DNA of 49,037 bases from Candidatus Uhrbacteria bacterium (GCA_023246955.1 JAHFHK010000003.1:1-49037); one strand, 5' to 3'. Counted from the stretch's first letter, positions 30,070-48,640 are shown. Numbers and translations: made by a program. The notes: generated by a model not told the origin, from the letters alone.

Positions 30070-30072
30070 GAT

Positions 30073-32046
30073 ATGTACGATAATAATCCTGACATTACCG
30101 TATTCGCAGAAACGAACTACCGCACGATGCGGCGACGTTTTGGTATCAAGCGAGATGATCGCCGCCGCCACATGTATGTAGTGGGAAAGACCGGTATGGG
30201 GAAGTCGACACTGCTCGAAAACATGATCATCGATGATATCCGTGAAGGACATGGCGTAGGGGTAGTAGATCCTCACGGAGACTTGGCGGAAAAGATTCTT
30301 AAGTTCATTCCGCCAGAACGTATCAACGACATTGTGTATGTGAACCCCGCCGATTTTGAATATCCGGTAGCCTTTAATATTCTCGAGAACGCCAACCCAC
30401 AATACAAGCACCTCATCGCGTCAGGGCTGATGGGAGTTTTCAAAAAGATCTGGCCAGACGTATGGAGCGCACGTATGGAATATATCCTCAACAATACGCT
30501 TCTTGCACTCCTCGACTATCCAGGGACGACGATGCTTGCGGTGAACCGTATGCTTTCAGACAAGGCATTTCGCACCAAGGTCGTTGAGCGCGTCCAGGAC
30601 CCAGTCGTAAAATCGTTTTGGGTGGATGAATTCGCCAAATATAATGACAAGTTTGCCTCAGAAGCAATCGCCCCTATCCAAAACAAAGTCGGGCAATTCC
30701 TTTCCGCATCCGTGATTCGTAATATCATCGGACAAGTGAAGTCCACGATCAATATTCGTGAATGCATGGACACAGGGAAGATCATCATCATGAATCTTTC
30801 AAAAGGGCGCGTGGGAGAGGATAACGCACGTCTACTCGGCGGTATGTTGATCACAAAGATCCAGCTCTCAGCGATGGAGCGCGTGGACATGCCGGAATCA
30901 GAACGTCGTGATTTCTACCTCTATGTCGACGAGTTTCAAAATTTTGCAACAGAAAGTTTTGCAACAATTCTTTCTGAAGCCCGTAAATATCGTCTATCGC
31001 TCGTGGTAGCGCACCAGTACATAGAACAGCTCGATGAAAAAGTAGCCGCAGCTATCTTCGGAAACGTAGGCACTATGGTGGTATACCGCGTGGGAGCAGC
31101 CGATGCAGACTATCTCGTCAAAGAATTCACGCCACGATTCATCGAAGAGGACCTTGTTAATATTCCAAAATTTAGCTTCTACCTAAAACTAATGATCGAC
31201 GGCGTAGCATCAGAGCCATTTTCCGCCAAGTGTCTCCCTCCGCTCAGCCCAGAAGAAGATACACATAACGAAGAAAAGGTCATTCGCTCCAGCCGTGAAC
31301 GCTATGCAATGCCACGCCTTGAAGTAGAAGAAAAGATCGCACGATGGTCATCGTCTTTGGACGAATCCGCAAAGGAAGCAGCGGATAGCGCTCCATCAAA
31401 AAAGAAAGCAGTTAACCAAGAGATGCCATCTCCCGATCGCCCCTACGAAGCCAAATGTGTGCGATGCGGAAAAACAATTTATTTGAACTTTCAACCCGAC
31501 GGCGTACGCCCAGTGTATGACAGCGACTGTTTTAAGATAGTAAAAGATGAGCGAGAGGCAAAGTTGGCAGGAGGCACAATGCCTGCCTCTCCGGCACCCA
31601 CTCCCGTCTCAACGCCCCCTCCCTTTGTGGCAGTAACGCCCCCCCCTCCCGTGGCACCTGCACCGATACCCATCCCTGCTGTACCCCCCGCAACACCGCC
31701 TCGTGTATCACCGAACCCTGCTGCTGCTTCGCAACCGAGACCATCAGAACGTCCACATTCGGCAATACCATCACCAAGACCGCCGTATATACCACGTGAA
31801 AGGCCCGTATCCCCATCACGCGATACTCGCCCCTCGCAAGAAAGACGAAGCACAGGAACTCCGCAGCGCCCCACCTCCCCAGCCACTCACAGCCGTCCTC
31901 TGCGCCCTCCCGTATCGGCTGCTCCACACCCCGTAGAAACAAAGCCGACGATTCCCGCGCAGACGTTCTCCCTGAAAGATCTCGCAGACAAGAAGCCGAC
32001 CCGATTCCGCGAAAAGGAAAGCGGTGGTGACGGCCCGAAACCATAG
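30073..32046 (+). CDS. P-loop NTPase of the TraD/VirD4/TrwB (type IV coupling protein)-like or HerA-like class, with a C-terminal zinc-ribbon-like motif and a proline-rich tail
   Basis: Walker A VVGKTGMGKST, Walker B FYLYVDEFQNF, SLVVAHQYIEQL, CVRCGK...RPVYDSDC, and about 160 aa of P/S/T/A-rich sequence. Confidence 0.7.
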   Translation: MYDNNPDITVFAETNYRTMRRRFGIKRDDRRRHMYVVGKTGMGKSTLLENMIIDDIREGHGVGVVDPHGDLAEKILKFIPPERINDIVYVNPADFEYPVAFNILENANPQYKHLIASGLMGVFKKIWPDVWSARMEYILNNTLLALLDYPGTTMLAVNRMLSDKAFRTKVVERVQDPVVKSFWVDEFAKYNDKFASEAIAPIQNKVGQFLSASVIRNIIGQVKSTINIRECMDTGKIIIMNLSKGRVGEDNARLLGGMLITKIQLSAMERVDMPESERRDFYLYVDEFQNFATESFATILSEARKYRLSLVVAHQYIEQLDEKVAAAIFGNVGTMVVYRVGAADADYLVKEFTPRFIEEDLVNIPKFSFYLKLMIDGVASEPFSAKCLPPLSPEEDTHNEEKVIRSSRERYAMPRLEVEEKIARWSSSLDESAKEAADSAPSKKKAVNQEMPSPDRPYEAKCVRCGKTIYLNFQPDGVRPVYDSDCFKIVKDEREAKLAGGTMPASPAPTPVSTPPPFVAVTPPPPVAPAPIPIPAVPPATPPRVSPNPAAASQPRPSERPHSAIPSPRPPYIPRERPVSPSRDTRPSQERRSTGTPQRPTSPATHSRPLRPPVSAAPHPVETKPTIPAQTFSLKDLADKKPTRFREKESGGDGPKP

Positions 32047-33825: not shown

Positions 33826-33853
33826 TTGACAATATTTCCTCTTGTGCTATTTT
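33826..33853 (+). promoter_or_regulatory. Sigma-70-type promoter (TTGACA-N16-TATTTT with TGTGC)
   Basis: Lies directly after the stop of the upstream gene, 100 nt before ATG 33953. Confidence 0.45.
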
Positions 33854-33952
33854 CTAGGAGTTACCTTGAAAATTCATAGGAAAGTCTGAAAGGAGCTTTC
33901 GGGAATAAAGGTCCCTATCGAGAAGCAATATTCAGGAGAATACAGAGAAAAT

Positions 33953-34780
33953 ATGAGTAATAGCATGAAAGTACACCTGGTCATTATTGACCCACAAAAC
34001 GACTTCATGGACAGCCCTGGATCGGCGTTGCCGGTCTCTGGTGCCAATGAAGACATGCGCCGTTTGGCAGCCATGATCGAGCGCGTTGGCCATAAATTGG
34101 ACGATATCCACGTGACCCTCGACTCGCACCGCGTCATCGACGTGGGGCATCCAGGCATGTGGCGTGATCAAGACGGTAATCTTCCCGGTCCATTCACGAT
34201 CATATCGGCTGACGATATCAAGAACGGTATCTGGACGCCGAGAAACCCGAACTTTCGAGCAAGGATGCTAGAATATGCACGTGCTCTTGAAGTCCAAGGC
34301 AACTATCCATTGATGGTGTGGCCTGAGCATTGTCTCATCGGAACTCCCGGTCACAATGTGCAAGCAGACCTCATGGCAGTGTTGCAACGATGGGAGCGTA
34401 CTGAGTACGCGAATGTCGACTTTGTGACAAAGGGAACAAATACGTTTACCGAGCACTACGGTGCGTTGCAGGCAGAAGTGGTAGATGCCACAGATCCTTC
34501 AACGAGTCTCAACACGGCATTTCTCGACGTTTTAGCGAATGCAGATATTGTGGCAGTTGCAGGAGAGGCATTGAGCCATTGCGTAAAATCTACAGTGACC
34601 CAGATCGCTCAACATATCGGTCCGGATCAACTAAAAAAGTTTTACGTCCTGACCGATTGTACGAGTTCCGTTTCCCAAGTCGGAAATGGTCCTGACTTTC
34701 CCGCAATTGGACAAGCGTTTCTAAAAGAGATGGAAGCAAAAGGCATGACGCTGACCACCTCTATTGAATTTCTGAGCTAG
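33953..34780 (+). CDS. Isochorismatase/nicotinamidase-family cysteine hydrolase
   Basis: LVIIDPQNDF (catalytic Asp), FVTKGTN (Lys) and VAGEALSHCV (Cys) match the D-K-C triad pattern of this family. Confidence 0.7.
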   Translation: MSNSMKVHLVIIDPQNDFMDSPGSALPVSGANEDMRRLAAMIERVGHKLDDIHVTLDSHRVIDVGHPGMWRDQDGNLPGPFTIISADDIKNGIWTPRNPNFRARMLEYARALEVQGNYPLMVWPEHCLIGTPGHNVQADLMAVLQRWERTEYANVDFVTKGTNTFTEHYGALQAEVVDATDPSTSLNTAFLDVLANADIVAVAGEALSHCVKSTVTQIAQHIGPDQLKKFYVLTDCTSSVSQVGNGPDFPAIGQAFLKEMEAKGMTLTTSIEFLS

Positions 34781-34794
34781 GGAGGAAAATAAGA

Positions 34795-35541
34795 ATGCCA
34801 AGACTCGGAACCCAATCAGACATGCAAACCCACGCCTTGGGGGGAAATTTTAATTTCCAAGGAGCCAGGATCGATAACCTGGGTGCTACAGAATATACGC
34901 TCGTCACTATTGCGGTGGATACAACCGGATCGGTGAGCGGCTTCGCAAGTGAGCTAGACATGATGCTGGCAACTGCCGTTGAAGCTTGCAAAAAGTCTCC
35001 TCGGTCGGACAATCTACTGGTGCGAGTGATCTTCTTCTCGAGTATGAGAGGAGTTGATGAGATACACGGCTTCAAGCCACTTGCGGAAATTGATCCGCAG
35101 GCGTATCCAAAAATCAATCCCGGAGGCGCAACGCCGCTCTACGATGCGTGCTTTTCGGGCATTGCCGCCATGAATCTCTATGGCAAACAATTGACCGATC
35201 AAGATTTTGGCGTTAATGCCATATTTATAGCGGTCACTGACGGCGCGAACAATGATTCGAAGACTTCTGTGTCAATGGTGGCACAAGAGATCAAAAAGGC
35301 AGTCAGTGGAGAACTGGTTGAGTCGTTGGTATCGCTATTAATAGGGATCAATGCAAGTGGATGTGCTTCTGAACTACAGAGTTTCAAGAATGACGCAGGA
35401 CTTGACAGTTACATTGATGCCGGTGACGTGACGAAAGGAAAGCTGGCTAAGATTGCAGGATTTATTTCCCAGTCAATATCGAGCCAAAGCCAGGCATTGG
35501 GGACAGGCGGACCAAGCCAGCACATTTCTGCGACCATCTAA
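34795..35541 (+). CDS. von Willebrand factor A (TerY-like) domain protein
   Basis: MIDAS-like IAVDTTGSVSG (DxTxS) and IFIAVTDGANND. GGAGG RBS. Cytoplasmic, with no signal peptide. Confidence 0.75.
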   Translation: MPRLGTQSDMQTHALGGNFNFQGARIDNLGATEYTLVTIAVDTTGSVSGFASELDMMLATAVEACKKSPRSDNLLVRVIFFSSMRGVDEIHGFKPLAEIDPQAYPKINPGGATPLYDACFSGIAAMNLYGKQLTDQDFGVNAIFIAVTDGANNDSKTSVSMVAQEIKKAVSGELVESLVSLLIGINASGCASELQSFKNDAGLDSYIDAGDVTKGKLAKIAGFISQSISSQSQALGTGGPSQHISATI

Positions 35542-35566
35542 AATAGAGGGTCGTATCTGACATAAT

Positions 35567-35599
35567 GGCGATGGGGAACATTCTCCATCGCTTTTTTTC
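35567..35599 (+). terminator. Rho-independent terminator or attenuator between the vWA and PP2C genes
   Basis: Stem GCGATGGGGA/TCTCCATCGC followed by TTTTTTT. Confidence 0.6.
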
Positions 35600-35631
35600 T
35601 TCAAGAATAAAGAAAGGAAAAGGACTAAAAA

Positions 35632-36540
35632 ATGGACGAAATCAATAGAGGGGAACTTTCCGCGGACCATTATTTTCATATTGGTCAGGCACACCTCGTA
35701 AGCGGAAAACCGTGTCAGGATTATGCTATCTCTGGCCTCCATATGGGAGCCGCATACGCAGTCATTGCTGATGGGTGCTCTACGGGAGGAAATACCGATG
35801 TGGGCGCACGTATCATAGCACTGTCTACTGCCCAAGCGATACGGGAGCATCATATACTTATGCTTGCAAGTCAGGGAGGGGTGACAATGGGTGCTCAAGA
35901 AATAAACGAACGACAAAAAGGAGTACTCAGTGTCACACGAAAACTCCTCGGCCTTGAGCAGAGTGATATGCTGGCAACATGTCTCTATGTGTATATGACT
36001 CCTCGCGGGGGGGTTATCAATATACGAGGGGATGGAGTTGTTGCGCTGAAGTATCGAACGGGAGATATAAAAGTATTCCGTATGGAGTGGGGGAACAATA
36101 TGCCATTCTATCCGGCATACGAGGAATCACAGCTGAGCAGCTTTATAGCAGCCCATGGCGCAAATAACGAACCATCACTACGGTTGGAATGTAATATATA
36201 TAACCCAGATGGGACACTAAGAAAGGGGTATTGCCGAGAGCTATCTCTTGATTCGGGCATCGCAGGAAATACATTGAGTATTCCAGAAAAAGAGATGGAT
36301 CAGTTAGAGTTTGTCGCAGTATTTTCTGATGGGGTGACACAAATCGATGCCGTGGAATGGAGCAAAGCGGTGCAGTCATTCATGCGGTTTAAGAACACTA
36401 CTGGTGAGTTTGCAAAGCGACGAATGATTCGTGGCATTAAAGACTTTCAGAAGATGGGTAAAGGTCCCATTGATGATATAGCCTATGCGGTGGTGTACAA
36501 TAATCAGATACAGTTACGGGAGGATACAACATATGGCTAA
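35632..36540 (+). CDS. PP2C-family (PP2C_2-like) serine/threonine phosphatase
   Basis: GKPCQDY, AVIADGCSTGGNTDVGARI and AVFSDGVTQ metal-binding aspartate motifs. Confidence 0.7.
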   Translation: MDEINRGELSADHYFHIGQAHLVSGKPCQDYAISGLHMGAAYAVIADGCSTGGNTDVGARIIALSTAQAIREHHILMLASQGGVTMGAQEINERQKGVLSVTRKLLGLEQSDMLATCLYVYMTPRGGVINIRGDGVVALKYRTGDIKVFRMEWGNNMPFYPAYEESQLSSFIAAHGANNEPSLRLECNIYNPDGTLRKGYCRELSLDSGIAGNTLSIPEKEMDQLEFVAVFSDGVTQIDAVEWSKAVQSFMRFKNTTGEFAKRRMIRGIKDFQKMGKGPIDDIAYAVVYNNQIQLREDTTYG

Positions 36541-38254
36541 TCGCGAGGTAATACTCGAACATAGAGGTGCGCTAACACTACGTACCAGTGACTATATCAC
36601 AACGGGAGGAGAGGGGAGCGTCTATAAAAAAGGCGATACCGTCATAAAGATATACACCGATCCCAAAAAAATGCAGAACGAGGGTATGCCGGAAAAGATA
36701 CGACTACTTTCACGGCTTGCGCACGAATATATTATAGAGCCCAAGGGGCTTGTGATGAACAAAGCAGGAAACCCGATAGGATTCTATATGGCCCATGCCG
36801 CAGGAGAACCACTATCGCGCGTATTTACGAATGATTTTCGTACTCGTGAGGCATTCGGTGATGATGACGTATTGGTGCTTGCGGATCGTATGCGTAATGT
36901 TTGTATCTTCGCACACGGCAAGAACGCCCTTTTGGTCGATCCCAACGAGCTTAATTGGCTTGTTGCATTGAGTAAGAAAGACGGCCCAGCACCAAGAGCA
37001 ATCGACGTAGACTCATGGGCTATCGGGAAATGGAAAGGGACAGTGATTATGCCATCAATTCGTGACTGGCATTCGCGGGTCTTTGATCAACGTACCGATT
37101 GGTATGCATGGGGAATAGTAACATTCCAGCTCTTCACGGGGATTCATCCCTATAAAGGTAAGTTAGATGGGTATAAGCCTGGTGAGATGGAACGACGCAT
37201 GAAAGAAAATGCTTCAGTATTTCGCCCGGATATCCGTCTCAATAGTGCAGTACGCGACTTTGCATGCATCCCGAATCGTCTCCTCAACTGGTACGTCGCT
37301 ACCTTCGAAAGGGGTGAACGAACGATACCGCCATCACCGTTTGACATCGCTCATATACCAACACCTGCAATACAGACGCTCCGTGCCGTGGTAACGGGTT
37401 CTGGGCTCCTGACGTATCAGAAGCTACTGAGTGGTGTTGGAGATCCTATTATAAGGATTTTCACGAACGGCATTGTGCTATCGAAATCAGGAAAACTATT
37501 GCATCTCGGTACAAAGCGAGAAATAGGGAGAACCACCTCACTAGATATTGAGGTGGTAGCGGTGCATGGAGGGTATGTGAAGGTAGAGAAAAATAACGGA
37601 CAATTTCTCTTCTCCTTCATGAACGGAGTGAGTCTTCAAGAACAGCCTCTCTCATGTCCGATCCAACCACATAGCATTGTATGGTATGAGGACCGCATGT
37701 TCGCCGTTACGGAGCAGGGACTCAGTGAGCTAGTGTTCAGGATACTGGGAAAGCCCATACTGTCTATGGGGCAGACATGGGGAGCGATGATGAATGCAAC
37801 CCGTTGGTATGACGGAGTAGGTATTCAGGATGCCATGGGGGCAACCTATGTGATCGCTCCGTTCGAGGCGGCATCATGTGCGCATATTCGTGTGCATGAG
37901 CTTGATGGCATGAAGCCCATTAACGCAAAGGCGGGTAATCGTTTCATAGTCATTATCGCCATCGATCGATCGGGAAGATATCACAAGATTGAACTCACGA
38001 TGGATCGAGTATACAAACAGTATGTATTCTGGAAGCGTGAGAAGGATAGCCCTGAGCTCAACACGGTTATTCTCCCAAAGGGGGTAGCCGCAGTCATAGA
38101 AGAGGACGGTGAACTTAATATCTACGTTCCCACGAATGGTGCTCTGAACAAAATAAAAGACAAGGGTATAAAAACCGACAGACCTTTATCACGCTGGGGG
38201 GACATAGTAACATATATCCACGACGGCGATATATGGAGTATACGAGTGAAATAA
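36533..38254 (+). CDS. Protein-kinase-like protein with a C-terminal domain of about 280 aa of unknown function
   Basis: G-loop/Lys TTGGEGSVYKKGDTVIKIY, catalytic-loop-like LLVDPNELNWL, DFG-equivalent IDVDSW, and TDWYAWGIVTFQLFTGIHPYKG. The ATG overlaps the PP2C stop (ATGGCTAA). Confidence 0.7.
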   Translation: MANREVILEHRGALTLRTSDYITTGGEGSVYKKGDTVIKIYTDPKKMQNEGMPEKIRLLSRLAHEYIIEPKGLVMNKAGNPIGFYMAHAAGEPLSRVFTNDFRTREAFGDDDVLVLADRMRNVCIFAHGKNALLVDPNELNWLVALSKKDGPAPRAIDVDSWAIGKWKGTVIMPSIRDWHSRVFDQRTDWYAWGIVTFQLFTGIHPYKGKLDGYKPGEMERRMKENASVFRPDIRLNSAVRDFACIPNRLLNWYVATFERGERTIPPSPFDIAHIPTPAIQTLRAVVTGSGLLTYQKLLSGVGDPIIRIFTNGIVLSKSGKLLHLGTKREIGRTTSLDIEVVAVHGGYVKVEKNNGQFLFSFMNGVSLQEQPLSCPIQPHSIVWYEDRMFAVTEQGLSELVFRILGKPILSMGQTWGAMMNATRWYDGVGIQDAMGATYVIAPFEAASCAHIRVHELDGMKPINAKAGNRFIVIIAIDRSGRYHKIELTMDRVYKQYVFWKREKDSPELNTVILPKGVAAVIEEDGELNIYVPTNGALNKIKDKGIKTDRPLSRWGDIVTYIHDGDIWSIRVK

Positions 38255-38280
38255 TTTCACTCCGCACGAATCAATGATAG

Positions 38281-38312
38281 GGATAGCTAATATATAGCTA
38301 TCCCTCTTTTTA
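38281..38312 (+). terminator. Rho-independent terminator
   Basis: Stem GGATAGCTA/TAGCTATCC followed by a T-rich tail. Confidence 0.65.
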
Positions 38313-38321
38313 TAAAAACCC

Positions 38322-38350
38322 TTGACAAAATAAGCGATTCGTGGTATATA
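38322..38350 (+). promoter_or_regulatory. Sigma-70-type promoter (TTGACA-N17-TATATA, with TGG upstream); paralogous to 39543-39571
   Basis: ACCCTTGACAAAATAAGCGATTCGTGGTATATATAC closely matches the region upstream of 39621. Confidence 0.6.
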
Positions 38351-38400
38351 TACACCCAGATTCATTGAAAATAAAAAAGAAAAGGGAGACATAAGACACC

Positions 38401-39477
38401 ATGAAAAGAACAGTAATACTAGGAATAATGGCGATACTGACGGCATGTGGGGAGGGAACGAATCTTTCGACCCCGCCAACACCACTCACGGCAAGCATGA
38501 CAAAGACGCTTGCACAGCAAACCCAGGATGACGTGGTAACGCAAGGCTTCAATGCAACTATAACGGGTCTGCAAAAGATGGTAGAAACATTAACCGATGC
38601 CAATACCAAAAATCTCGGCGAGATTGCTCGACTCCAGGATGAAGTGAAAGCATGGAAAAAAATCGCAGAGGCAACACAACCCGGCACCACGGCAATACCT
38701 GCTGATGTCCAAAAACAAATCGCAGTGCTGGAGACCAGGATTGCAGTATTGCAAAAAAATGGAGACTCGGTACCCATCGATCTTTTTCGAGAGGTGCTCG
38801 ACAAACTCCCTATTGCATCAGCGGTGCCAACAAGTACCTCTCCATTCGGTGATGACGATTTCTTCCATCCAACACTGCCGATACCAACGCCCTCGCCTAC
38901 ACCTTCTCAATCTCCGACCGAAGCGTCCCCGCCGACGGTTGTCTCCTCTACGTCCCCGGTAACAGAAGGGGCGAGTCAGCTCTCATGGAGTAAGGGATAC
39001 AAGTACGTCAGGATAACGACGAATACCCTAACGCAGACCTTTGATCTGAATTGGAAATATCCGGAATCGGTAGCGGAAATAACGCTGAGAGGGGTCAGTG
39101 ATATATACACTGGAGTAAACATACGAGACATGATGATGGTCGTCGAAGAAGGATATTCTTCAGCAACGCCCAAACTAACCCTCTTGAATGGATCGCATCC
39201 AGTAACGCTAGCAGAAGACGCGGAAAGCCGAGGGGTATACCGCATCGCACAGGACCTCATCATACCGACAGATACTCCCGTGGTACTACGAGCGTATTTC
39301 TCTCCGAATCCAGAGTTGAAGGAAGACTCATGGATGCCCTCATCCTTTAAACTTTCCGTTTACATGACCCCGGTCGAACGATATCAAGACTCGACCTACC
39401 AGCACGGAGAGAAGAATGTGTCCTCCTTCACGGTGATACCGCTCACTCCATCGCCCAGCCCATCGCCCAGTGCCTAA
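38401..39477 (+). CDS. Lipoprotein with a coiled-coil segment, PT/S linker and beta-rich C-terminal domain
   Basis: Lipobox GIMAILTAC, a heptad-like region, TPSPTPSQSPTEASPP, and a PSPSPSPSA tail. Confidence 0.7.
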   Translation: MKRTVILGIMAILTACGEGTNLSTPPTPLTASMTKTLAQQTQDDVVTQGFNATITGLQKMVETLTDANTKNLGEIARLQDEVKAWKKIAEATQPGTTAIPADVQKQIAVLETRIAVLQKNGDSVPIDLFREVLDKLPIASAVPTSTSPFGDDDFFHPTLPIPTPSPTPSQSPTEASPPTVVSSTSPVTEGASQLSWSKGYKYVRITTNTLTQTFDLNWKYPESVAEITLRGVSDIYTGVNIRDMMMVVEEGYSSATPKLTLLNGSHPVTLAEDAESRGVYRIAQDLIIPTDTPVVLRAYFSPNPELKEDSWMPSSFKLSVYMTPVERYQDSTYQHGEKNVSSFTVIPLTPSPSPSPSA

Positions 39478-39490
39478 ATAAGCCATACAT

Positions 39491-39531
39491 GCCGCTATAT
39501 TTTTCATAATGAGAAATATGGCGGCTTTTTT
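39491..39531 (+). terminator. Rho-independent terminator
   Basis: Stem GCCGCTATATTT/AAATATGGCGGC followed by TTTTTT. Confidence 0.75.
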
Positions 39532-39542
39532 ATGCAAAACCC

Positions 39543-39571
39543 TTGACAAAATAAGCTATTCATGGTATACA
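39543..39571 (+). promoter_or_regulatory. Sigma-70-type promoter (TTGACA-N17-TATACA, with TGG upstream)
   Basis: ACCCTTGACAAAATAAGCTATTCATGGTATACATAC. Confidence 0.6.
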
Positions 39572-39620
39572 TACGAGCGAATTCATTGCCAAATACAAAC
39601 AAAAAAAGGGAGAGAAAACA

Positions 39621-40283
39621 ATGAATAAAGTAGCAATAACGATAGCGATAGTGATAGTGAGTGTTCTGACGGGTTGCGGAGGAAATTCGCAATTCTATGA
39701 AATGGAAGCGATGAAGGCAAAGATAAAAAGCCTGGAAGAAAGAGTACCGGTAGCTTTGCAAAAAGCACCCGCACCACCCCCGCCACTGATCACTAACGCC
39801 ATTGCGCCAATCCCGCTACAAAGCTGGAGCGTCGTAAGCGATAAAGTACGCGTAGAAGGAATACCATCCCAAAATCCTCTGGATCAAGGAATGCTCCAGG
39901 TACGCATTGCAGAAATGAAAGTGACAAACAGTGCACCAGGGCCAGTCAACCTTCAGGGCATGTATATGCTCGTGAAGCCAGTGAATATGGACCTCTCCGA
40001 CGTGAAAGCATTCAGTGAACACGTTACAACCATGCAGCATATCGGTGACCTATCTGAGGGAACGCGAGTGTATAAGATCAATGATCCATTCATTGTTCAG
40101 ACCAGTGCTCCCCTCGGTGGATTCGTCCTCGCGGATGCATTCAAGCAAGACCGCAACCGCATTGGCGTTGTAGAAACGACCTTCGTAGGACGACCTCTGG
40201 GCGATATGAGCGCCGGCGATGTATACACTCAGGTAGCGGCAAATCCTTCGATCGCCGCGAAAGTAGTAAATACTTTCAAATAA
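39621..40283 (+). CDS. Lipoprotein, hypothetical
   Basis: Lipobox VSVLTGC, a short coiled coil, APAPPPP linker, and a beta-rich domain. Confidence 0.7.
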   Translation: MNKVAITIAIVIVSVLTGCGGNSQFYEMEAMKAKIKSLEERVPVALQKAPAPPPPLITNAIAPIPLQSWSVVSDKVRVEGIPSQNPLDQGMLQVRIAEMKVTNSAPGPVNLQGMYMLVKPVNMDLSDVKAFSEHVTTMQHIGDLSEGTRVYKINDPFIVQTSAPLGGFVLADAFKQDRNRIGVVETTFVGRPLGDMSAGDVYTQVAANPSIAAKVVNTFK

Positions 40284-40297
40284 ATTCAAATAAAAAA

Positions 40298-40338
40298 CGG
40301 ACAGACGGGAAATATCAATCTCGTCTGTCTTTATTTTG
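40298..40338 (+). terminator. Rho-independent terminator
   Basis: Stem GACAGACG/CGTCTGTC followed by TTTATTTT. Confidence 0.65.
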
Positions 40339-40388
40339 CGCAAGATACGCCCCCGACACACCCCACTCTTCCAAAATCAAACCGAATA

Positions 40389-41531
40389 ATGTACACTGCC
40401 CCCATGAATCAGCCCATCCCTCATAACAATCAGGAAAACCCCAAACAGCGCATTTTCGTCGCCATGTCCGGTGGTGTCGACTCCTCGACAGTGGCCGCCA
40501 TCCTCAAAGAACAAGGCCATGACATCATAGGCGTCTTTATGCGCCAATACGACGCAGACTACGGACCTGCAGCGCTCTCCGATGATCTCGACGCCGTACG
40601 GTGTTCCTGGCGCGAAGACAAGCGCGATGCCCTCGCCGCATGCGCAACACTCGGTATCCCCTTTGAAGAATGGGATTTTCGTGATGTGTACCAAAGAGAA
40701 GTCGTCGACTACATGACCCGCGAATACGCAGCCGGAAGAACACCGAATCCCGACGTGATGTGTAATCGCTTCGTGAAGTTCGATGCATTTTTCAAAAAAG
40801 CCCGCGAACACGGTGCCGACATGATTGCCACAGGGCACTACGTCCGCATTCAGCACACCGAAGACGGCCACGGCCTCTACGAAGCACACGACACGAACAA
40901 GGATCAATCCTACTTCCTCTGGGCGCTCTCTCCCGAAGTACTCCCATATTGTCTCTTTCCCTTAGGCGATCTCGAGAAGCCCACAGTCCGCACCCTCGCA
41001 AAGAAACACGCCCTCGCGAACTGGGACAAGAAAGATAGCCAAGGCGTATGCTTCATCGGCAAGATCAGCATGCGGGACTTCCTCAAAGGAAAAATCGCAA
41101 CAACACCAGGACCCCTCTGTACCCTCGACGGCAAGCAGGTCGGTACCCATGACGGCGCGGCACTGTATACCATCGGCCAGCGTCATGGCCTAGGTTTTGG
41201 CGGTGGGGAACATACCTACTACGTCGCAAAGAAAGACATGAAGGCAAATATCGTCTATGTCGCCCCCGAAACCGAGCCGGAACATCTCTTGGCCAAAACC
41301 TTGCAGTTTGATACAGTGAACTGGCTTGCTCCACTCCCTGTGTTTCCGTTACAGTGCAAAGCGCGTACACGCTACCGAGAGCCCCTCCATGATGTGACGA
41401 TCCGCGAAGTTGCTCCCGGAACCTTCATGGCTGAATTCGAGGAGTCCATCCGCGCCATCACCGAAGGACAGGCGATCGTGCTGTACGACAAAGGAAAGAT
41501 GCTCGGCGGCGGAGTTATAACCAGTAAATAA
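40389..41531 (+). CDS. mnmA: tRNA-specific 2-thiouridylase MnmA
   Basis: PP-loop VAMSGGVDSS, NPDVMCN, KDQSYFL and QGVCFIG. Confidence 0.93.
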   Translation: MYTAPMNQPIPHNNQENPKQRIFVAMSGGVDSSTVAAILKEQGHDIIGVFMRQYDADYGPAALSDDLDAVRCSWREDKRDALAACATLGIPFEEWDFRDVYQREVVDYMTREYAAGRTPNPDVMCNRFVKFDAFFKKAREHGADMIATGHYVRIQHTEDGHGLYEAHDTNKDQSYFLWALSPEVLPYCLFPLGDLEKPTVRTLAKKHALANWDKKDSQGVCFIGKISMRDFLKGKIATTPGPLCTLDGKQVGTHDGAALYTIGQRHGLGFGGGEHTYYVAKKDMKANIVYVAPETEPEHLLAKTLQFDTVNWLAPLPVFPLQCKARTRYREPLHDVTIREVAPGTFMAEFEESIRAITEGQAIVLYDKGKMLGGGVITSK

Positions 41532-43302: not shown

Positions 43303-43331
43303 TTGACGCCCCATCCCATCCATGCTAGTAT
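43303..43331 (+). promoter_or_regulatory. Sigma-70-type promoter (TTGACG-N17-TAGTAT, with TGC extended -10) for DGR target 1
   Basis: Same TGCTAGTAT -10 block as the promoter of target 2 at 47169-47197. Confidence 0.6.
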
Positions 43332-43381: not shown

Positions 43382-44449
43382 ATGAATATTCAAGGAAGGC
43401 ACCCCTCAGGACCTCCATTCAAAATGGAGCCAAAGGTAGAAGAGCTCATTAACGCCATGATAGCATTCTGCGAGCAACCACTGCCGGAAGAAGATCCCGC
43501 TACCACAAGTCCAGTGGAGACCATGGTACCTACTGGCACAGCACTGGATCTTCCGGAACCTCCAAAAGGCGCGATGCCCCTCCCCGCAACAACTCCAGTA
43601 ACGACGGTACTATTTCCCGCCCCCGCTATATATTTCCCCCCGGCGCCAAAACCAGGAAATATATCATTAGACGAGGCTGCCGATCATACTCAGTACCAGC
43701 AGTTCTATACAGAACTCAAGACGCTTTTTGGCACAGGCTTCTGTGGTATCGACGAGGTAACCCGTGCGTTCACTACTCAAAATGGGGTTCTGCCAGGGAA
43801 CACCATGGCATCCTTCCACGAACGACTCCATGGAGCCACTCTCAAGGCCCTCTGGGATAACTGCCAAAAACCAGACATCGCCGCATTCCTTTCCAAGATA
43901 AAAGCTGGAGAAGTAAACGCAAGCGACTGGCTCCTCATCCTCAGGATACCATTCCTAAAGAAGCCAAATGAGGAGAAAGAAATCCCGCTCACCATGAAAG
44001 CCCTCCAGGAGCACATCGCTCCCGATATGCTCAAGTGTGAGCAAGGGAAGCTTCTTTATGAGGTAAGCTGGTATCCACAGGAAGTTTTCTATGCCACTCA
44101 GGCGATATCTAGCTTCCATTGGCAATTTGTCACCAAGGCATGTACTCCAGGAACCAAAGGCGTGAATCACGATGCGCAAGCTACCGCACTGAACGCCTAT
44201 GCTCAAAAAGTAGGTCTCGACCCTGCGCTAACCCGCAGACGCATCCCTGTCGAAGTACCCTACGATCATCTCGTGACACTCCGTGCACACAACATGCGCC
44301 TCCTCGTCAATGAGTACGATTGGACGGATACGCGTGCGTCTGATGGCGGCTGCGTGTTCGTCGGTGATGGTGATGCGTACGGGCTCGGCGTGTTCAGGCG
44401 CTCCGCCGACGTCTCGGACGGTGATCGGGGTGCGTGCCTCTCCCGCTGA
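43382..44449 (+). CDS. DGR variable (target) protein 1, with a C-terminal VR-bearing domain
   Basis: The C-terminal 38 codons are VR1. The last roughly 230 aa are paralogous to target 2 (LFG..FCGID.VTRAFT, WLLILRIPFLK, LTMKALQEH.APDM, HWQFVTKAC). Confidence 0.85.
   Translation: MNIQGRHPSGPPFKMEPKVEELINAMIAFCEQPLPEEDPATTSPVETMVPTGTALDLPEPPKGAMPLPATTPVTTVLFPAPAIYFPPAPKPGNISLDEAADHTQYQQFYTELKTLFGTGFCGIDEVTRAFTTQNGVLPGNTMASFHERLHGATLKALWDNCQKPDIAAFLSKIKAGEVNASDWLLILRIPFLKKPNEEKEIPLTMKALQEHIAPDMLKCEQGKLLYEVSWYPQEVFYATQAISSFHWQFVTKACTPGTKGVNHDAQATALNAYAQKVGLDPALTRRRIPVEVPYDHLVTLRAHNMRLLVNEYDWTDTRASDGGCVFVGDGDAYGLGVFRRSADVSDGDRGACLSR
44332..44445 (+). repeat. DGR variable repeat VR1
   Basis: 114-nt alignment to the TR (45389-45502). 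There are 20 mismatches, 19 of them at TR adenines. The 3' 18 nt are identical. Confidence 0.85.
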
Positions 44450-44578
44450 TGTTGACACTGTCCTGCTGGACCCTTGACCGCCCCTGGCGGCCTGACCACC
44501 AGCGAGCCAGCTGGTGGATTGGACTCCTGACTGTCCCCTGAATTCCTTCAGTGTACCGACCCCGTCGGTGCACCTCCC

Positions 44579-44610
44579 GAGCCCTTTCGAATGAAAGGGC
44601 TCTTTTTTAT
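44579..44610 (+). terminator. Rho-independent terminator (repeated module GAGCCCTTTCGAATGAAAGGGCTC + T6)
   Basis: Perfect 10-bp stem followed by a T-run. An identical copy is at 48609-48640 and a variant at 47084-47110. Confidence 0.8.
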
Positions 44611-44689
44611 ACCACGCGTCGAATTGGTGAATGTTTTCTTGAAAACAATCTGTCATCGTGGTAGTATCAATAATAATAATGGTTGCAAT

Positions 44690-44935
44690 ATGAAAAAATC
44701 ATCAAAAATTTACCACTTTTCCGTTGTCATAGAGCGTGATGAAGATGGCATGTACGTCGGCACTGTGCCTGCTCTACGCTCATGCTACACGCAGGCAAAA
44801 ACTATACCAGTATTGTACGAGCGTCTTGAAGAAGTTGTGGCTCTGTGTCTAGAAGTTGAGAAGGACATTTTCAAAGATCACATTACGCAAAACCAGTTGG
44901 TAGGAGTGCAGCAATTAGATTTTAAAATGGCATAG
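44690..44935 (+). CDS. hicB: HicB-family antitoxin (UPF0150-type)
   Basis: YHFSVVIERDEDGMYVGTVPALRSCYTQAKTIPVLYERLEEVVALCLE matches the HicB N-terminal fold pattern. A promoter-like TTGAAA-N17-TAGTAT lies upstream. Confidence 0.75.
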   Translation: MKKSSKIYHFSVVIERDEDGMYVGTVPALRSCYTQAKTIPVLYERLEEVVALCLEVEKDIFKDHITQNQLVGVQQLDFKMA

Positions 44936-44939
44936 CAGT

Positions 44940-45173
44940 ATGCCACCGCTACACCTCGTATCAGGAAAGAGGCTACTAAAGATGATGAAGGAGCTTGATT
45001 TTGAAGTTATCCGCGTTCGTGGGAGCCATCATTTTCTTAGTCGAATGTCTGACGGAAAAACAACGGTGGTATCTATTCATGGTAATGACGAGATAAGCAG
45101 AGGTCTTCTTCGCACTATCCTGAGAGACATAGAAATTTCTGTAGAGGAATATGAAAAACTGCGTGTGATGTAA
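44940..45173 (+). CDS. hicA: HicA-family mRNA interferase toxin
   Basis: SGKRLLKMMKELDFEVIRVRGSHHFL...VVSIHGNDEISRGLLRTILRD (YcfA/HicA pattern). Confidence 0.8.
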   Translation: MPPLHLVSGKRLLKMMKELDFEVIRVRGSHHFLSRMSDGKTTVVSIHGNDEISRGLLRTILRDIEISVEEYEKLRVM

Positions 45174-45276
45174 GTCGCATAAGCACCATAAACTATCCCT
45201 TGAACCTCCTCGGCGCTATACTAAATGAATGATGGTTTATAGAATCACCACATCCTGTGGACTGGTTTACCGTCAT

Positions 45277-45312
45277 GATACGATTGTCAACACTGCTTCG
45301 TATCGTTTTTTT
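45277..45312 (+). terminator. Rho-independent terminator after hicBA
   Basis: Stem GATACGA/TCGTATC followed by GTTTTTTT. Confidence 0.6.
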
Positions 45313-45388
45313 CTCAGGCGAGGGGGTCAAGGAAGATTAACATCCAGCAAACCCATCTCGCCACGAATACGGATGCGCGATATGAAGG

Positions 45389-45502
45389 ACGTACGTCTAA
45401 TGGCAACTTCGTGAACGTCGGTAATGGTGATGCGAACGGGCTCAACGTGAACAGGAACTCCGCCGACGACTCGAACGGTAATCAGGGTGCGTGCCTCTCC
45501 CG
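45389..45502 (+). repeat. DGR template repeat (TR)
   Basis: Non-coding copy of the VR sequence, rich in AAC/AAT triplets. 22 of its 27 adenines are substituted in VR1 and/or VR2. Homology to the VRs ends at CTCCCG and then diverges (IMH* versus IMH). Confidence 0.85.
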
Positions 45503-45524
45503 AAGTGTCGACAACGATCGTAGG

Positions 45525-45556
45525 GAGTCCTTCTTCATACGGAGGACTCTTTTTTC
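45525..45556 (+). terminator. Terminator-like hairpin directly 3' of the TR
   Basis: Stem GAGTCC/GGACTC followed by TTTTTT. Confidence 0.5.
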
Positions 45557-45564
45557 ATGGAAAA

Positions 45565-45687
45565 GACCTCTGAAAAATTGATGGATTTTCATTGAATGGG
45601 CTATCGAATCCAGGGAACGTATGGATAATACGTTGAGTGGATTCGATGGGTGCCCGTGAAATGAAAAGGCGCGATTTTGCAGGGGTC
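45565..45687. repeat. Structured palindromic element, copy B (candidate ncRNA), lying between the TR and the avd 3' end
   Basis: Homologous to 32071-32226, with compensatory changes (ATCGAATCC/GGATTCGAT versus GTTGA(G)CTCC/GGAGTCAAC). Confidence 0.6.
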
Positions 45688-45689
45688 GT

Positions 45690-46040
45690 CTATATCGAAC
45701 GGATCCATCCACCGAGCATTCTGCCAACCTCGTCGAGCTCTTCTTCGAGATCAAGATACGTTTTCTCGGGGATAATACGGAGACGGGCACTCAGCCGAAT
45801 CAAGATCTTCACCTCATCGAGGCGTGGACTCACCTGTATGAGCTGAAAACGAGCCTGCTCTCGGCTCAAATACTGCGCGCGCATAATGACGGTAAGAAGT
45901 TCGAGCAATGAATCAGAGACTTTGTGTGCTATGGTATAGCGGTCACTTTTCGGAAATTTTTTTGCATAGATATGCCACCGACAAAAGAAATCAAACAAAC
46001 GCGAGAAAAGGACAGTGTTCCGTTGGGGGGGGGTAGACAT
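45690..46040 (-). CDS. avd: Avd-like four-helix-bundle protein (DGR accessory variability determinant; 23S rRNA IVS protein family)
   Basis: YAKKFPKSDRYTIAHKVSDSLLELL...RLDEVKILIRLS...LDLEEELDEVGRMLGGWI matches the four-helix-bundle family pattern. It is adjacent to the TR and RT. Confidence 0.7.
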   Translation of the reverse strand: MSTPPQRNTVLFSRLFDFFCRWHIYAKKFPKSDRYTIAHKVSDSLLELLTVIMRAQYLSREQARFQLIQVSPRLDEVKILIRLSARLRIIPEKTYLDLEEELDEVGRMLGGWIRSI

Positions 46041-47042
46041 AGTACCTTATTTGAAAAAATAATAAGCCTCGCAAACCTCTATGCTGCGTGGCGAGAATTT
46101 GAAAGAGGAAAACGCAATCGCCCAGACGTGCAAGAATTCGCATACGATATCGAGAAAAATATCTTCGATCTTCGCGCACGACTCGTATCGCAACAATGGA
46201 CGCACGACCAGTATACAATGTTTCATGTCTGCGATCCAAAACCGCGCATAGTCCACAAAGCGACCGTAAGCAATCGAATCGTACACCACGCTATCGTTCG
46301 TCACATCGAACCCCTATTCGAACGGTCTTTCATCTTTGATACCTGGTCATGCAGGACAGGAAAGGGGACGCATGCAGCGATGCTCCGTGCGCATGAGAAA
46401 TTAAGAGAACTCTCCCAAAAAACCAAAGGAGAGATATGGGTCCTGCAATGCGACATCAAAAAATATTTTCAATCCGTCGATCACGATATACTGACACGCA
46501 TACTTCAAAAAAATATCATCGACACAGAGACGCTCACGCTCCTGCGAAATATCATCGATAGTTTCTCGCCCGGCATCCCTCTAGGGAATCTCACATCACA
46601 GCTCTTCGCAAACATCTACCTCAACCCCTTCGATCACTTCGTCAAAGAAATCCTGCGCCCCGCATCCTACATTCGCTATTGCGATGACTTCTTCCTCACA
46701 CATCCCTCCCGGGAATATCTAGTGAATTGCTACCGCCAAATCGACACATTCCTCAAGACCCGCCTTCACCTTACCCTCCATCCGAATAAAATCCACCTCC
46801 ACCCATTCCGCTACGGCATAGATTTCCTCGGTCACGTACTGTACCCCGACGGAAGGAGACTACGCCACGTTTCTCGAAAACGTATGCAGCGACGAGTCCA
46901 GGAGGCGGTCAACGAGTTGAGCACAGGAAAACGCTCGTATGCATCTACATGCGCAATCATCGCCTCGTATAAGGGCATGGTGCAGTACGCCTCATCTCAT
47001 TACGACGACGAGCTCCTCGATCTGCTAAAACAATGCCTATAA
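45972..47042 (+). CDS. DGR-type reverse transcriptase
   Basis: RT motifs DPKPRIVHKA, QCDIKKYFQSVDH, IPLGNLTSQLFANIYLNPFDH (the DGR-typical LGxxxSQ) and YIRYCDDFFL. About 356 aa, with no maturase or endonuclease domains. Start is uncertain (GTG 45924, ATG 45972, TTG 46023). Confidence 0.88.
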   Translation: MPPTKEIKQTREKDSVPLGGGRHSTLFEKIISLANLYAAWREFERGKRNRPDVQEFAYDIEKNIFDLRARLVSQQWTHDQYTMFHVCDPKPRIVHKATVSNRIVHHAIVRHIEPLFERSFIFDTWSCRTGKGTHAAMLRAHEKLRELSQKTKGEIWVLQCDIKKYFQSVDHDILTRILQKNIIDTETLTLLRNIIDSFSPGIPLGNLTSQLFANIYLNPFDHFVKEILRPASYIRYCDDFFLTHPSREYLVNCYRQIDTFLKTRLHLTLHPNKIHLHPFRYGIDFLGHVLYPDGRRLRHVSRKRMQRRVQEAVNELSTGKRSYASTCAIIASYKGMVQYASSHYDDELLDLLKQCL

Positions 47043-47083
47043 CCACCCTACCAAACTACGTCGATCCCGTTGGAGCCCTCCCC

Positions 47084-47110
47084 GAGCCCTCTTAAATGAA
47101 AGGGCTCTTT
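47084..47110 (+). terminator. Terminator-like hairpin after the RT (variant of the repeated GAGCCC...GGGCTC module)
   Basis: Stem GAGCCCT/AGGGCTC with a short T-run. Confidence 0.5.
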
Positions 47111-47168
47111 ACGCACGCTATGCAAGAGCGACTTCCCAAAAAACCCAAAAATATAACCAAAACTGACC

Positions 47169-47197
47169 TTGACAACCACACATATCTCTGCTAGTAT
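47169..47197 (+). promoter_or_regulatory. Sigma-70-type promoter (TTGACA-N17-TAGTAT, with TGC extended -10) for DGR target 2
   Basis: The TTG start of track ORF 47169 is the -35 hexamer itself. The real start is ATG 47238. Confidence 0.6.
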
Positions 47198-47237
47198 CGG
47201 GACAAGTATATCGTTCATTGAAAGGAAAACACAACTC

Positions 47238-48443
47238 ATGAGTGAACAGACGGAAAAAACATTACGCGAGTATGCCCCGCTCATACTCCGAACATTTCAT
47301 AACGAATACGGACGGAGCGGAGCATACCCCATCTTTCACCTCACACAGAACGCAGAAGCCACGGCATTCGTGGCGGGTGGGAACACGAGTAACTGGCAAG
47401 AAGGAATGCGTTCAGTCGGTGTTGCACTGTATCATAGCGTGCGGGGAGTGTCAGAACACACAGACCCCAGCTACGCGATCAACCCTTATCCACCACTCGA
47501 AGGAACACTAGGGGAGATCATCAACGAATTAGTAGACGATCGAGTATCTATTGATACGCTGGATCGCCTCCTCGCAGGTCTACAGAGACCTCAACCCAGC
47601 ATAACGTTAATTCCGACAAACCTACCGAGCAACGGCCCATTGGTGATTATCGTACCAGATCCACCGAAGCCAAGCGCAATAGAAGAACAAGCGAGACACT
47701 ATGAATCACTCCGCACACTCTTTGGCGCTAACTTCTGCGGTATCGATGGAGTAACCCGTGCATTCACATTGAACGACGGTACCACATTAGCATCCTATCC
47801 GGATGCGTACCGTGTATCTATCCTGAAAGCGCTCTGGGACAAATGCCAAGAGCCCGACGTAGCAAAGTTCCTCTCTCATATTAAAGAGGGAAAGGTAAGT
47901 GCAAGTGGTTGGCTCCTCATACTCCGAATACCGTTCCTGAAACGGGCAGGCAAAGATATTCCGCTCACCATGAAAGCGCTTCAAGAGCATGTCGCTCCCG
48001 ACATGATAGCGCACAGCCAAGGAAAATTGTTTTGTTCGGCTGCAGACAGTAACTGTTGGTATACAAACAACGAAGTATTCTACGATACCGAGTCGATACC
48101 ATCATGTCATTGGCAATTCGTAACAAAAGCGTGCGTCGAAGGGACAAAAGGTAAAAAACACGGGCAACAAACAACGGTACTCAATAAGTGTGCCAAAACA
48201 GTAGGATTCGATCCTACCCTCGTCCGCAGGCGCAGGCCAGTGGAAATACCATACGACCACGCCATAATGCTGCGAGAACATAATGTACGTCTTCTCGAAG
48301 GTGAATGGGATTGCACGGACACAATGCGTGCGTCTGATGGCCTCTTCGTGAGCGTCGGTTATGGTGATGCGTACGGGCTCGACGTGAGCAGGCTCTCCGC
48401 CGGCGGCTCGGGCGGTGGTCAGGGTGCGTGCCTCTCCCGCTGA
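47238..48443 (+). CDS. DGR variable (target) protein 2
   Basis: The C-terminal codons are VR2. It is paralogous to target 1 over the C-terminal region of about 230 aa and has a different N-terminal region. Confidence 0.85.
   Translation: MSEQTEKTLREYAPLILRTFHNEYGRSGAYPIFHLTQNAEATAFVAGGNTSNWQEGMRSVGVALYHSVRGVSEHTDPSYAINPYPPLEGTLGEIINELVDDRVSIDTLDRLLAGLQRPQPSITLIPTNLPSNGPLVIIVPDPPKPSAIEEQARHYESLRTLFGANFCGIDGVTRAFTLNDGTTLASYPDAYRVSILKALWDKCQEPDVAKFLSHIKEGKVSASGWLLILRIPFLKRAGKDIPLTMKALQEHVAPDMIAHSQGKLFCSAADSNCWYTNNEVFYDTESIPSCHWQFVTKACVEGTKGKKHGQQTTVLNKCAKTVGFDPTLVRRRRPVEIPYDHAIMLREHNVRLLEGEWDCTDTMRASDGLFVSVGYGDAYGLDVSRLSAGGSGGGQGACLSR
48326..48439 (+). repeat. DGR variable repeat VR2
   Basis: 114-nt alignment to the TR shows 18 mismatches, all at TR adenines. 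Confidence 0.85.
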
Positions 48444-48608
48444 TGTTGACACTGTCCTGCTGGTCTCTTAACCGCCCCTGGCGGCCTGACCACCAGTTCG
48501 ACTGGTGGATTGGACTCCTGACTGCCCCCTGAATTTACTCAGTGCGCTAGCATAGTCGGCGTACTCCGATTTCAATGAGTGTCGCTGGCTGTATCGGCGC
48601 GCCCCTCC

Positions 48609-48640
48609 GAGCCCTTTCGAATGAAAGGGCTCTTTTTTAT
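48609..48640 (+). terminator. Rho-independent terminator (identical copy of 44579-44610)
   Basis: GAGCCCTTTCGAATGAAAGGGCTC followed by TTTTTT. Confidence 0.8.

Follow-up and report, generated by a model that had tools for sequence, protein, structure and literature searches.

The founding diversity-generating retroelement (DGR) is phage-borne. In the DGR of Bordetella phage BPP-1 (mtd-avd-TR-brt, where TR is the template repeat), adenine-specific changes accumulate in a variable repeat (VR) at the 3' end of the target open reading frame (ORF), and a hairpin or cruciform downstream of the VR, with loops that are required to be 4-nucleotide (nt) GRNA sequences, is needed for efficient homing. 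A GC-rich inverted repeat downstream of the VR is found in about a third of DGRs. The order 'TR-(avd)-RT' with avd on the reverse strand, RT being the reverse transcriptase, has been described as architecture B3, and it is also known that a DGR may have its components divided between the strands, enclose ORFs unrelated to it and possess more than one target (Wu et al., 2018; PMC5758913). Here we describe a DGR in a 49,037-nt stretch of DNA from Candidatus Uhrbacteria bacterium (GCA_023246955.1 JAHFHK010000003.1:1-49037; hereafter the window), whose components lie between positions 43,382 and 48,640. We hold with high confidence that this locus is a genuine and complete chromosomal DGR of a bacterium of the Patescibacteria, or Candidate Phyla Radiation (CPR), with two paralogous targets.

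As an instance of a known system the element is clean but unremarkable, apparently intact and of a catalogued architecture. It resembles the BPP-1 DGR in its full-length RT homologous to that of BPP-1 (bRT), its protein of the bAvd family, its conserved catalytic and mutagenesis-associated residues, a TR of about 114–134 nt, VRs that lie at the 3' ends of target ORFs and are altered specifically at adenines, the use of AAY codons, a GC-rich end like that of an initiation of mutagenic homing (IMH) site, and an inverted repeat downstream of the VR. However, it differs from BPP-1 in being chromosomal, in having two targets, in the inversion of avd over the start of the RT gene, in the hicBA pair nested within it, in post-VR loops that are not 4-nt GRNA and in a target without detectable similarity to Mtd. 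With the DGRs described from CPR and DPANN organisms (a CPR survey cited in PMC5758913 and PMC10907252), and with architecture B3, it shares a Patescibacteria host, the TR-(avd)-RT order with a reverse-strand avd, nested unrelated ORFs and multiple targets.

Template and variable repeats

The three repeats upon which the identification is based are the following:

45389 to 45502, plus strand: TR, recognised as a three-copy direct repeat by a repeat finder and by ungapped comparison
44332 to 44445, plus strand: VR1, at the 3' end of target gene 1
48326 to 48439, plus strand: VR2, at the 3' end of target gene 2

The repeat finder returned a single three-copy direct repeat in the window, with starts at 44332, 45389 and 48326, and the coordinates of the TR and the VRs proposed in an initial annotation of this stretch were reproduced exactly. 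The TR was compared with VR1 and with VR2 without gaps, and the significance of the base bias was obtained from the hypergeometric distribution, given the composition of the TR (27 A, 34 G, 31 C, and 22 T). Between the TR and VR1 there are 20 mismatches, 19 of them at TR adenines and the remaining one a T>G change at 45409 (P = 2e-14), and all of the 18 mismatches of VR2 (18/18) are located at TR adenines (P = 1e-14). In total, 22 of the 27 TR adenines are altered in at least one VR, and 86 of the 87 non-adenine sites are kept across the TR and both VRs. The initial annotation had arrived at the same counts of mismatches and altered adenines and at the same single non-adenine change in VR1; the absence of an adenine bias, which it had named as grounds for doubting the element, is contradicted by P values of about 1e-14. 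When each adenine of the TR is replaced by N, the resulting pattern fits VR2 without a mismatch and VR1 with a single one, and it is found 3 times in the window as against 0.00 expected.

The substitutions in the two VRs consist of 24 A>G, 10 A>T and 3 A>C changes. At the 15 sites that are substituted in both VRs, the same base is present in VR1 and VR2 in 8 cases, and 7.5 are predicted by the observed bias toward A>G. The shared substitutions were on this basis rejected as a sign of common ancestry, and VR1 and VR2 therefore look independently diversified.

The GC-rich 18-mer with which the repeats end, GGGTGCGTGCCTCTCCCG, is identical in the TR, VR1 and VR2 (3 occurrences in the window versus 0.05 expected). 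Past this 18-mer, the next 30 nt of the TR are only partly similar to those of the VRs, whereas VR1 and VR2 remain identical to each other for 24 nt more. An invariant end followed by divergence of TR and VR, as the initial annotation had also recognised, is the pattern of an IMH site in the VR and a non-identical IMH* in the TR, and we interpret the ends of the repeats as IMH-like on this ground. Searches with the 18-mer and with the adenine-to-N pattern revealed no further VR copies in the 49-kb window. The 5' boundary of the TR is ambiguous by one base, as both VRs have G at 45389 and no homology is present upstream of it. Two mechanically called ORFs overlap the TR (45411-45581 and 45229-45414), and there is no sign that either of them is a gene.

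Both VRs are in frame and each of them ends 4 nt 5' of the stop codon of its gene. Read in the frame of the VRs, the TR gives RTSNGNFVNVGNGDANGLNVNRNSADDSNGNQGACLSR, and 26 of its 27 adenines occupy codon positions 1–2. These codons include 7 AAC and 3 AAT, in agreement with the earlier remark that the adenines lie mainly in triplets of these two kinds. None of the 192 combinations of TR adenine substitutions (0/192) creates a stop codon, and up to 16 codons, mostly AAC/AAT, can be recoded to give about 1.8e15 reachable peptides per target. The coding logic of the TR and VRs is that of the classical DGR design.

Reverse transcriptase, Avd and cassette layout

Three further components lie between the two targets:

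46023 to 47042 (TTG start), or from the ATG at 45972, plus strand: DGR reverse transcriptase, identified by 8ub7, RVT_1 and phrog_1423
45690 to 46040, minus strand: avd accessory gene (116 amino acids, aa), identified by PF22296, PHROG and NF033474
44690 to 45173, plus strand: pair of a hicB-like gene (44690-44935) and hicA (44940-45173), identified by Pfam, with its own promoter-like site at 44639-44667

The RT contains the motifs LGNLTSQ and YCDD, as the initial annotation had indicated, and these correspond to the motif 4 ([I/L/V]GxxxSQ) and YxDD box expected of DGR RTs. Its best match in the PDB is bRT of BPP-1 (8ub7; E = 6e-44, 154 bits, aligned over bRT residues 2–313), and the next-best matches, to group II-like RTs, score 66 bits and are thus 88 bits behind. 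Additionally, the protein matches RVT_1 in Pfam and phrog_1423 in PHROG (370 bits), and it retains the residues equivalent to K29, R74, D138, Q187 and D215/D216 of bRT, with L at the position of I181; the retained residues include catalytic ones and ones associated with adenine mutagenesis. Based upon these family matches and motifs, the RT is assigned to the DGR type. The group II intron or retron identity that the initial annotation had entertained as a way to be wrong receives no support, as the RT scores far below the NCBIfam cutoffs for the group II intron model TIGR04416 (122.8 bits, cutoff 300), the retron model NF038233 (59, cutoff 235) and the Drt models (18–62, cutoffs 200–550). An Rfam scan of the window likewise gave no family at the gathering threshold, including no group II intron or retron RNA, and no tRNA genes are present in the window.

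The RT is about 340 aa in length and carries no maturase or endonuclease domain. The alignment with bRT, together with a conserved N-terminal extension, places its start upstream of 'LFEKII', either at the TTG at 46023, which gives M-G-G-G-R-H (cf. M-G-K-R-H in bRT), or at the ATG at 45972; the 304-aa RT gene call on the public ENA contig is therefore too short. The nearest relatives of this protein in the metagenome and viral scans are only 46%, 42% and 32% identical to it. Outside its own small lineage, the nearest relatives are cyanobacterial DGR RTs (33–40% identity) and not an obviously CPR-only clade, a point of difference from the described CPR DGRs. An independent detector found an A-biased TR/VR pair at 105 of the 161 loci with relatives of this RT, and 32 of these 105 have at least two VRs.

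The accessory protein belongs to the bAvd family (PF22296, 66.2 bits, cutoff 40), and the PHROG family 'Avd protein of DGR' matches it at 1e-14; a comparison with PDB sequences gave no meaningful match. The Avd-like gene that had been placed between the repeats is thus confirmed and assigned to a family, and to that description must be added its strand, which had been left unstated: it is encoded on the minus strand, head-to-head with the RT gene, and the 5' ends of the two genes overlap. The order of the cassette is target1(VR1) - hicBA - TR - (avd, opposite strand) - RT - target2(VR2). Among the 144 RT-relative loci with a detectable Avd, avd is upstream of the RT on the same strand in 135, and a divergent avd/RT layout is shared by the window with the loci of its closest RT relatives, viz. 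L084 (46% RT identity), L085 (42%) and L095/L096 (36%). The layout is therefore uncommon but catalogued. As avd is inverted and overlaps the RT start, the TR RNA, avd and the RT would be separate transcripts.

In L095 and L096, where avd is also divergent, the TR is found 3' of the RT in the order (avd)-RT-TR, whereas the TR of the window precedes avd, and the position of the TR has thus moved within this lineage. Avd is likewise divergent from the RT in a more distant relative (L166/L167/L168; Avd homolog P0153, 45% identical), where it is convergent with and abuts a gene for a 967-aa AAA_5 protein, which is probably the DGR target of that element, with an AAA-type architecture.

The account given in the initial annotation did not include hicBA. 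HicA matches PF07927 with 56.9 bits (cutoff 27), and the 81-aa ORF upstream of it matches HicB_lk with 21.3 bits, below the cutoff of 27. This HicAB type II toxin-antitoxin pair, nested between VR1 and the TR, is probably a passenger and not a component of the DGR. A hairpin followed by T7 at about 45278-45312 separates it from the TR.

Target proteins and elements flanking the repeats

The two target genes are as follows:

43382 to 44449, plus strand: target gene 1 (355 aa), an ORF whose product has an N-terminus that is rich in Pro and disordered, and a conserved module (about 250 aa) that ends in VR1
47238 to 48443, plus strand: target gene 2 (401 aa), an ORF paralogous to target 1 with about 50% identity

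The paralogy of the VR-bearing genes that had been proposed earlier is borne out by this level of identity. The target proteins have no match in Pfam, NCBIfam, PADLOC or PHROG, and the absence of a Pfam assignment for both target and VR is shared with most CPR DGR targets. A word-indexed search detected five homologous proteins and a full profile search 528 cluster representatives, 245 of these 528 at E values up to 1e-10. These proteins are 150–1290 aa in length, and almost all of them carry the module (about 250 residues) at the C-terminus. No Pfam domain was found over this module in any of the 45 family members scanned (0/45), and a few of the 45 have N-terminal AAA_5 or AAA_16 domains. 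The latter agrees with the fusions of C-type lectin and AAA domains (CLec-AAA) that are reported to be common among CPR DGR targets. However, the targets in the window themselves lack an AAA ATPase domain, which is said to be the commonest architecture of CPR targets, although some members of their family have AAA_5.

An AlphaFold2 (AF2) model of target 1 has a mean predicted local distance difference test score (pLDDT) of 85.5 overall and above 95 for residues 100–355; the domain modelled alone has 89.7. In this model, the C-terminal domain has the topology beta-alpha-alpha-beta-beta-beta, and its three final beta-strands are contributed by the VR; in this respect the predicted structure resembles the C-type-lectin variable proteins (Mtd, TvpA 2Y3C and proteins of the formylglycine-generating enzyme, or FGE, type), whose C-terminal domains likewise end in strands encoded by the VR. 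The top Foldseek matches are C-type lectins, the FGE-like EgtB/SenA, TvpA (2Y3C) and Mtd, none of them significant, and searches of both the full-length and the domain models against PDB and BFVD gave non-significant matches only. Unlike the described variable proteins, the targets lack a significant structural match, any match to PDB sequences (single or as a profile) and a Pfam family in 45 members. A C-type lectin fold for the target domain is therefore suggestive only. Neither target contains a signal-peptide-like or transmembrane-like segment (maximum 19-aa hydropathy 1.1–1.2), and both proteins are, judged by their sequences, probably cytoplasmic.

The following elements flank the repeats and genes of the cassette:

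44446 to 44553, plus strand: post-VR element of target 1, kept in the VR2 flank and in the sister-genome targets; DNA fold z = -3.6
48440 to 48544, plus strand: post-VR element of target 2, kept in the flank of target 1 and in the sister-genome targets
45525 to 45555, plus strand: hairpin 22 nt 3' of the TR with a core stem of 9 bp, a loop of 7 nt and a T6 run after it, stable in the minimum free energy and centroid folds
45603 to 45647, plus strand: long hairpin with imperfect pairing (arms of 20 nt that are 85% complementary, loop of 5 nt), situated in the spacer that runs from the TR to the 3' end of avd
44579 to 44608, plus strand: terminator hairpin GAGCCCTTTCGAATGAAAGGGCTC followed by T6, after target 1 (intrinsic terminator)
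47084 to 47107, plus strand: variant copy of the terminator hairpin after the RT gene, found by repeat/pattern search
48609 to 48638, plus strand: terminator hairpin and T6 after target 2, identical to the copy after target 1

About 100 nt 3' of each VR is conserved in both targets of the window and in three targets of a sister genome, which is described below. The post-VR element of target 1 holds the 3' part of the IMH-like region and two inverted repeats. The first of these (44478-44490, CCGCC-CCT-GGCGG, and 48472-48484) is present in 5/5 related targets, and the second (44496-44517, CCACCAGC-GAGCCA-GCTGGTGG, and 48490-48508) in 4/5, its VR2 copy keeping the stem by a compensatory change from C-G to T-A. 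These GC-rich inverted repeats of the VR flanks are absent from the TR flank.

Avd-binding stem-loops located just downstream of the TR are present in 207 of 278 Avd-containing DGRs (Handa et al.), and by analogy the hairpin at 45525-45555 is a candidate for an Avd-binding stem-loop and/or for the terminator of the TR RNA. A 7-bp pairing between the TR and the spacer near 45667-45673 proved to be within chance. The 24-nt terminator hairpin (44579-44602, 47084-47107 and 48609-48632) has 3 copies in the 49-kb window, all of them inside the cassette; about 25 nt upstream of the copies are also similar, and the hairpin is conserved in the sister genome (L082 2530-2553). Promoter-like sites with 17-nt spacers precede target 1 (43303-43331), hicBA (44639-44667), target 2 (47169-47197) and the next gene. 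A sigma-70 promoter for the TR at 45200-45222 was considered and rejected, as its spacer is only 11 nt.

By homology with BPP-1, the TR and its downstream spacer would be transcribed, and a complex of RT and Avd would bind the TR-spacer RNA and copy it into cDNA with misincorporation opposite template adenines. The mutagenised cDNA would then replace, in one target gene or the other, the homologous VR at the 3' end, and this replacement may be directed by the shared GC-rich, IMH-like 18-mer together with the VR-specific flank and its inverted repeats; the TR itself would stay unchanged. The expected outcome is that residues exposed at the surface of a ligand-binding domain, which is C-terminal and probably C-type-lectin-like, are recoded. 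The anatomy of the element, its adenine-specific pattern, the families of its RT and Avd and the concerted flow of information from TR to VR are shown here; the boundaries of the RNA, the priming mechanism, the roles of the hairpins, the activity of the element at present and the ligand are those parts of this scheme that we infer.

Sister lineage, activity and the G tract

The window encodes murD-ftsW-murG-murC-murB of the division and cell wall (dcw) cluster, ftsA, secA, glycosyltransferases, secD/F, a VirD4-like ATPase, mnmA and alaS. The 587-aa alanyl-tRNA synthetase (AlaRS) is 63–67% identical to proteins named Uhrbacteria, Minisyncoccia, Parcubacteria and Patescibacteria, and since all of its named relatives are Patescibacteria, the attribution to the CPR holds. 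A sister organism from sample SRR22387887 was compared with the window protein by protein, and the identities were 96% for AlaRS, 87% for MnmA, 85% for the RT, 77% for target 2 and 55% for target 1. The sister has this element at the same chromosomal site, between alaS and downstream genes that it shares with the window; the element is seen after alaS on one contig and as RT-target2-radical SAM on another, and the sample also contains a third target (L083); a search for an Avd homolog to accompany the sister-genome TR returned no close assembled ortholog. Even the non-variable scaffold of target 1 (43382-44449) is only 57% identical to that of the sister protein at the same position (L081 10001-10915), and this divergence, as compared with 96% for AlaRS and 85% for the RT, points to very fast evolution or to replacement by a paralog at this site.

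Among the neighbouring genes, about 6.5 kb of the window (33833-40392), encoding an isochorismatase-like protein, a PP2C phosphatase and several proteins without a Pfam match, is absent from the sister, where one 76-aa ORF is found in its place (L081 6500-6891). SecD (25467-27644) has two PpiC-type peptidyl-prolyl isomerase (rotamase) domains in its periplasmic region, and the same fusion is present in the sister (L081 gene 1). At 28681-32046, a DUF8128-type protein adjoins a VirD4/TrwB-like coupling ATPase that contains a treble-clef zinc finger, an arrangement that is syntenic in the sister; a C8 tract (31639-31646) inside the ATPase gene is not conserved there.

Comparison of the sister's three VRs among themselves shows differences at 21 of the 27 sites that are adenines in the TR of the window, as against 6 of the 87 other sites (Fisher 1e-12). 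At the same time, all three of them share 5 non-adenine differences from the TR and VRs of the window, and the paralogs that carry these shared changes are otherwise only 50–57% identical. Variation at adenine sites combined with shared lineage-specific changes at other sites indicates homing after the lineages split, and homing of a diverged sister TR into all three sister VRs after that split would explain the pattern. At the level of assembled sequences, this comparison shows a concerted flow of information from TR to VR in two sister lineages. The initial annotation had called the element probably active, which overstates the evidence, as this bears only on homing since divergence from the sister.

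Several observations weigh against the interpretation of this locus as a complete DGR that works in the manner of BPP-1. The score of Avd with NF033474 (71.3 bits) is just below the NCBIfam equivalog cutoff of 80, and the structural matches of the target domain to C-type lectins lack significance (Foldseek E of at least 0.47, TM-score of at most 0.45). The loops of the post-VR hairpins are of 3 or 6 nt and not the 4-nt GRNA that BPP-1 requires. The RNA fold of the TR with its flanks is no better than those of shuffled sequences (z = -0.24), and when RNAduplex was used to look for pairing of upstream with downstream sequence (a 'cPRT stop') or of the TR with the spacer (a priming duplex), 173 of 200 shuffles were at least as good. 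In addition, the promoter scan found no promoter-like site for the TR or the RT, and three contigs, which come from at least two assemblies, encode one and the same consensus target-1 protein.

The last two of these observations could also be accommodated by a DGR relic, i.e., an element that once diversified its targets but has ceased to retrohome, which would leave its VRs frozen, and the T>G change of VR1 at 45409 is what would be expected of ordinary mutation after the last homing event. However, minority variants are invisible in consensus assemblies, and in the exact-protein look-up target 2 was present on one contig, identity between assemblies being uninformative about activity. Further, the components are intact and in frame, including the catalytic residues of the RT, Avd and a G9 tract that is in frame for both genes; the TR and VRs remain identical at 86 of 87 non-adenine sites; and the sister lineage shows homing after the split. 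We consider a relic unlikely.

A second alternative is that the DGR belongs to a phage or mobile element that has become integrated, and that the protein it diversifies is a receptor-binding one. The phage origin of the founding DGR, the PHROG families that match the RT and Avd, and the toxin-antitoxin pair nested in the cassette would all fit such an origin, but the flanks of the cassette are housekeeping genes that are syntenic in the sister on both sides, and no phage gene, integrase or phage structural gene was seen in the window. The targets have no PHROG match, signal peptide or transmembrane segment, and the viral scan with the RT found one distant relative (32%) among 2.9 million viral contigs. 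A phage or mobile element is on these grounds very improbable, and the DGR is regarded as chromosomal. Lastly, the proposal that the repeats are paralogous sequence and a gene fragment homogenised by gene conversion, next to an unrelated group II intron or retron/defence RT, can draw upon the sub-threshold matches of the RT to group II, retron and DRT models but is effectively refuted by the adenine bias (P about 1e-14), the 88-bit lead of a DGR RT as best structural relative, the adjacent Avd, the absence of Rfam group II intron and retron RNAs from the window, and the length of the RT (about 340 aa) without a maturase or endonuclease domain.

One additional feature of the cassette is located where avd and the RT gene overlap:

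46025 to 46033, no strand assigned: G9 homopolymer, comprising avd codons 3–5 (Thr-Pro-Pro) and RT codons 2–4 (Gly-Gly-Gly)

A tract is present at the same site in the four closest loci, as G9 in the window, G9 in the sister (L082 5-13), G10 in L084 (360-369) and G8 in L085 (439-446), and it is kept as a homopolymer across RTs that are only 42–46% identical. Among 148 Avd genes, C-tracts of at least 7 near the N-terminus of Avd are found only in the window, L084 and L085, and the other 145 are without them; the avd gene of L082 is cut off by the contig end and is outside the 148 genes counted. In the 1.33 Mb of fetched loci there are 14 G:C tracts of at least 8, and 3 of these 14 are at the avd/RT junction. 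The tract of the window is also under a dual-coding constraint, with the RT Gly codons in register with the avd Pro codons. In L084 and L085, however, the tract lies 5' of the RT start and so cannot owe its retention to dual coding. The assembled sequence of L084 has a single ATG from which a full-length Avd could be read, and this ATG is one G out of frame; in the sister, contig L082 starts 4 nt short of the tract.

These observations resemble the homopolymeric-tract contingency loci of Neisseria, Campylobacter, Bordetella and Mycobacterium in that a G:C tract of 8–10 nt is located within the first codons of avd, is conserved over divergent relatives and leaves one relative out of frame as assembled. 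They are unlike these loci in that the tract of the window is dual-coding and is known here from a single assembled length per locus. The G8–G10 tract might act as a slipped-strand phase switch that turns Avd, and here also the RT, on and off, so that hypermutation would be stochastically gated in the population. We put this forward as a conjecture that is rather improbable on the sequences at hand; the tract and the frame of L084 may instead reflect an assembly error or a different cis-function. Among the papers of the collection that was searched, none connecting DGRs with homopolymeric tracts or with phase variation was listed.

The element adds a clean and fully annotated two-target DGR of the Patescibacteria, together with a sister-genome comparison by which the flow of information from TR to VR is shown in both lineages without read data. 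The unannotated family to which its targets belong, with 528 representatives, no Pfam model and a confident predicted structure, could seed a domain model for CPR DGR targets. If the G tract varies in length, it would provide an example of phase-variable DGR control, a 'contingency locus controlling a diversity generator'.

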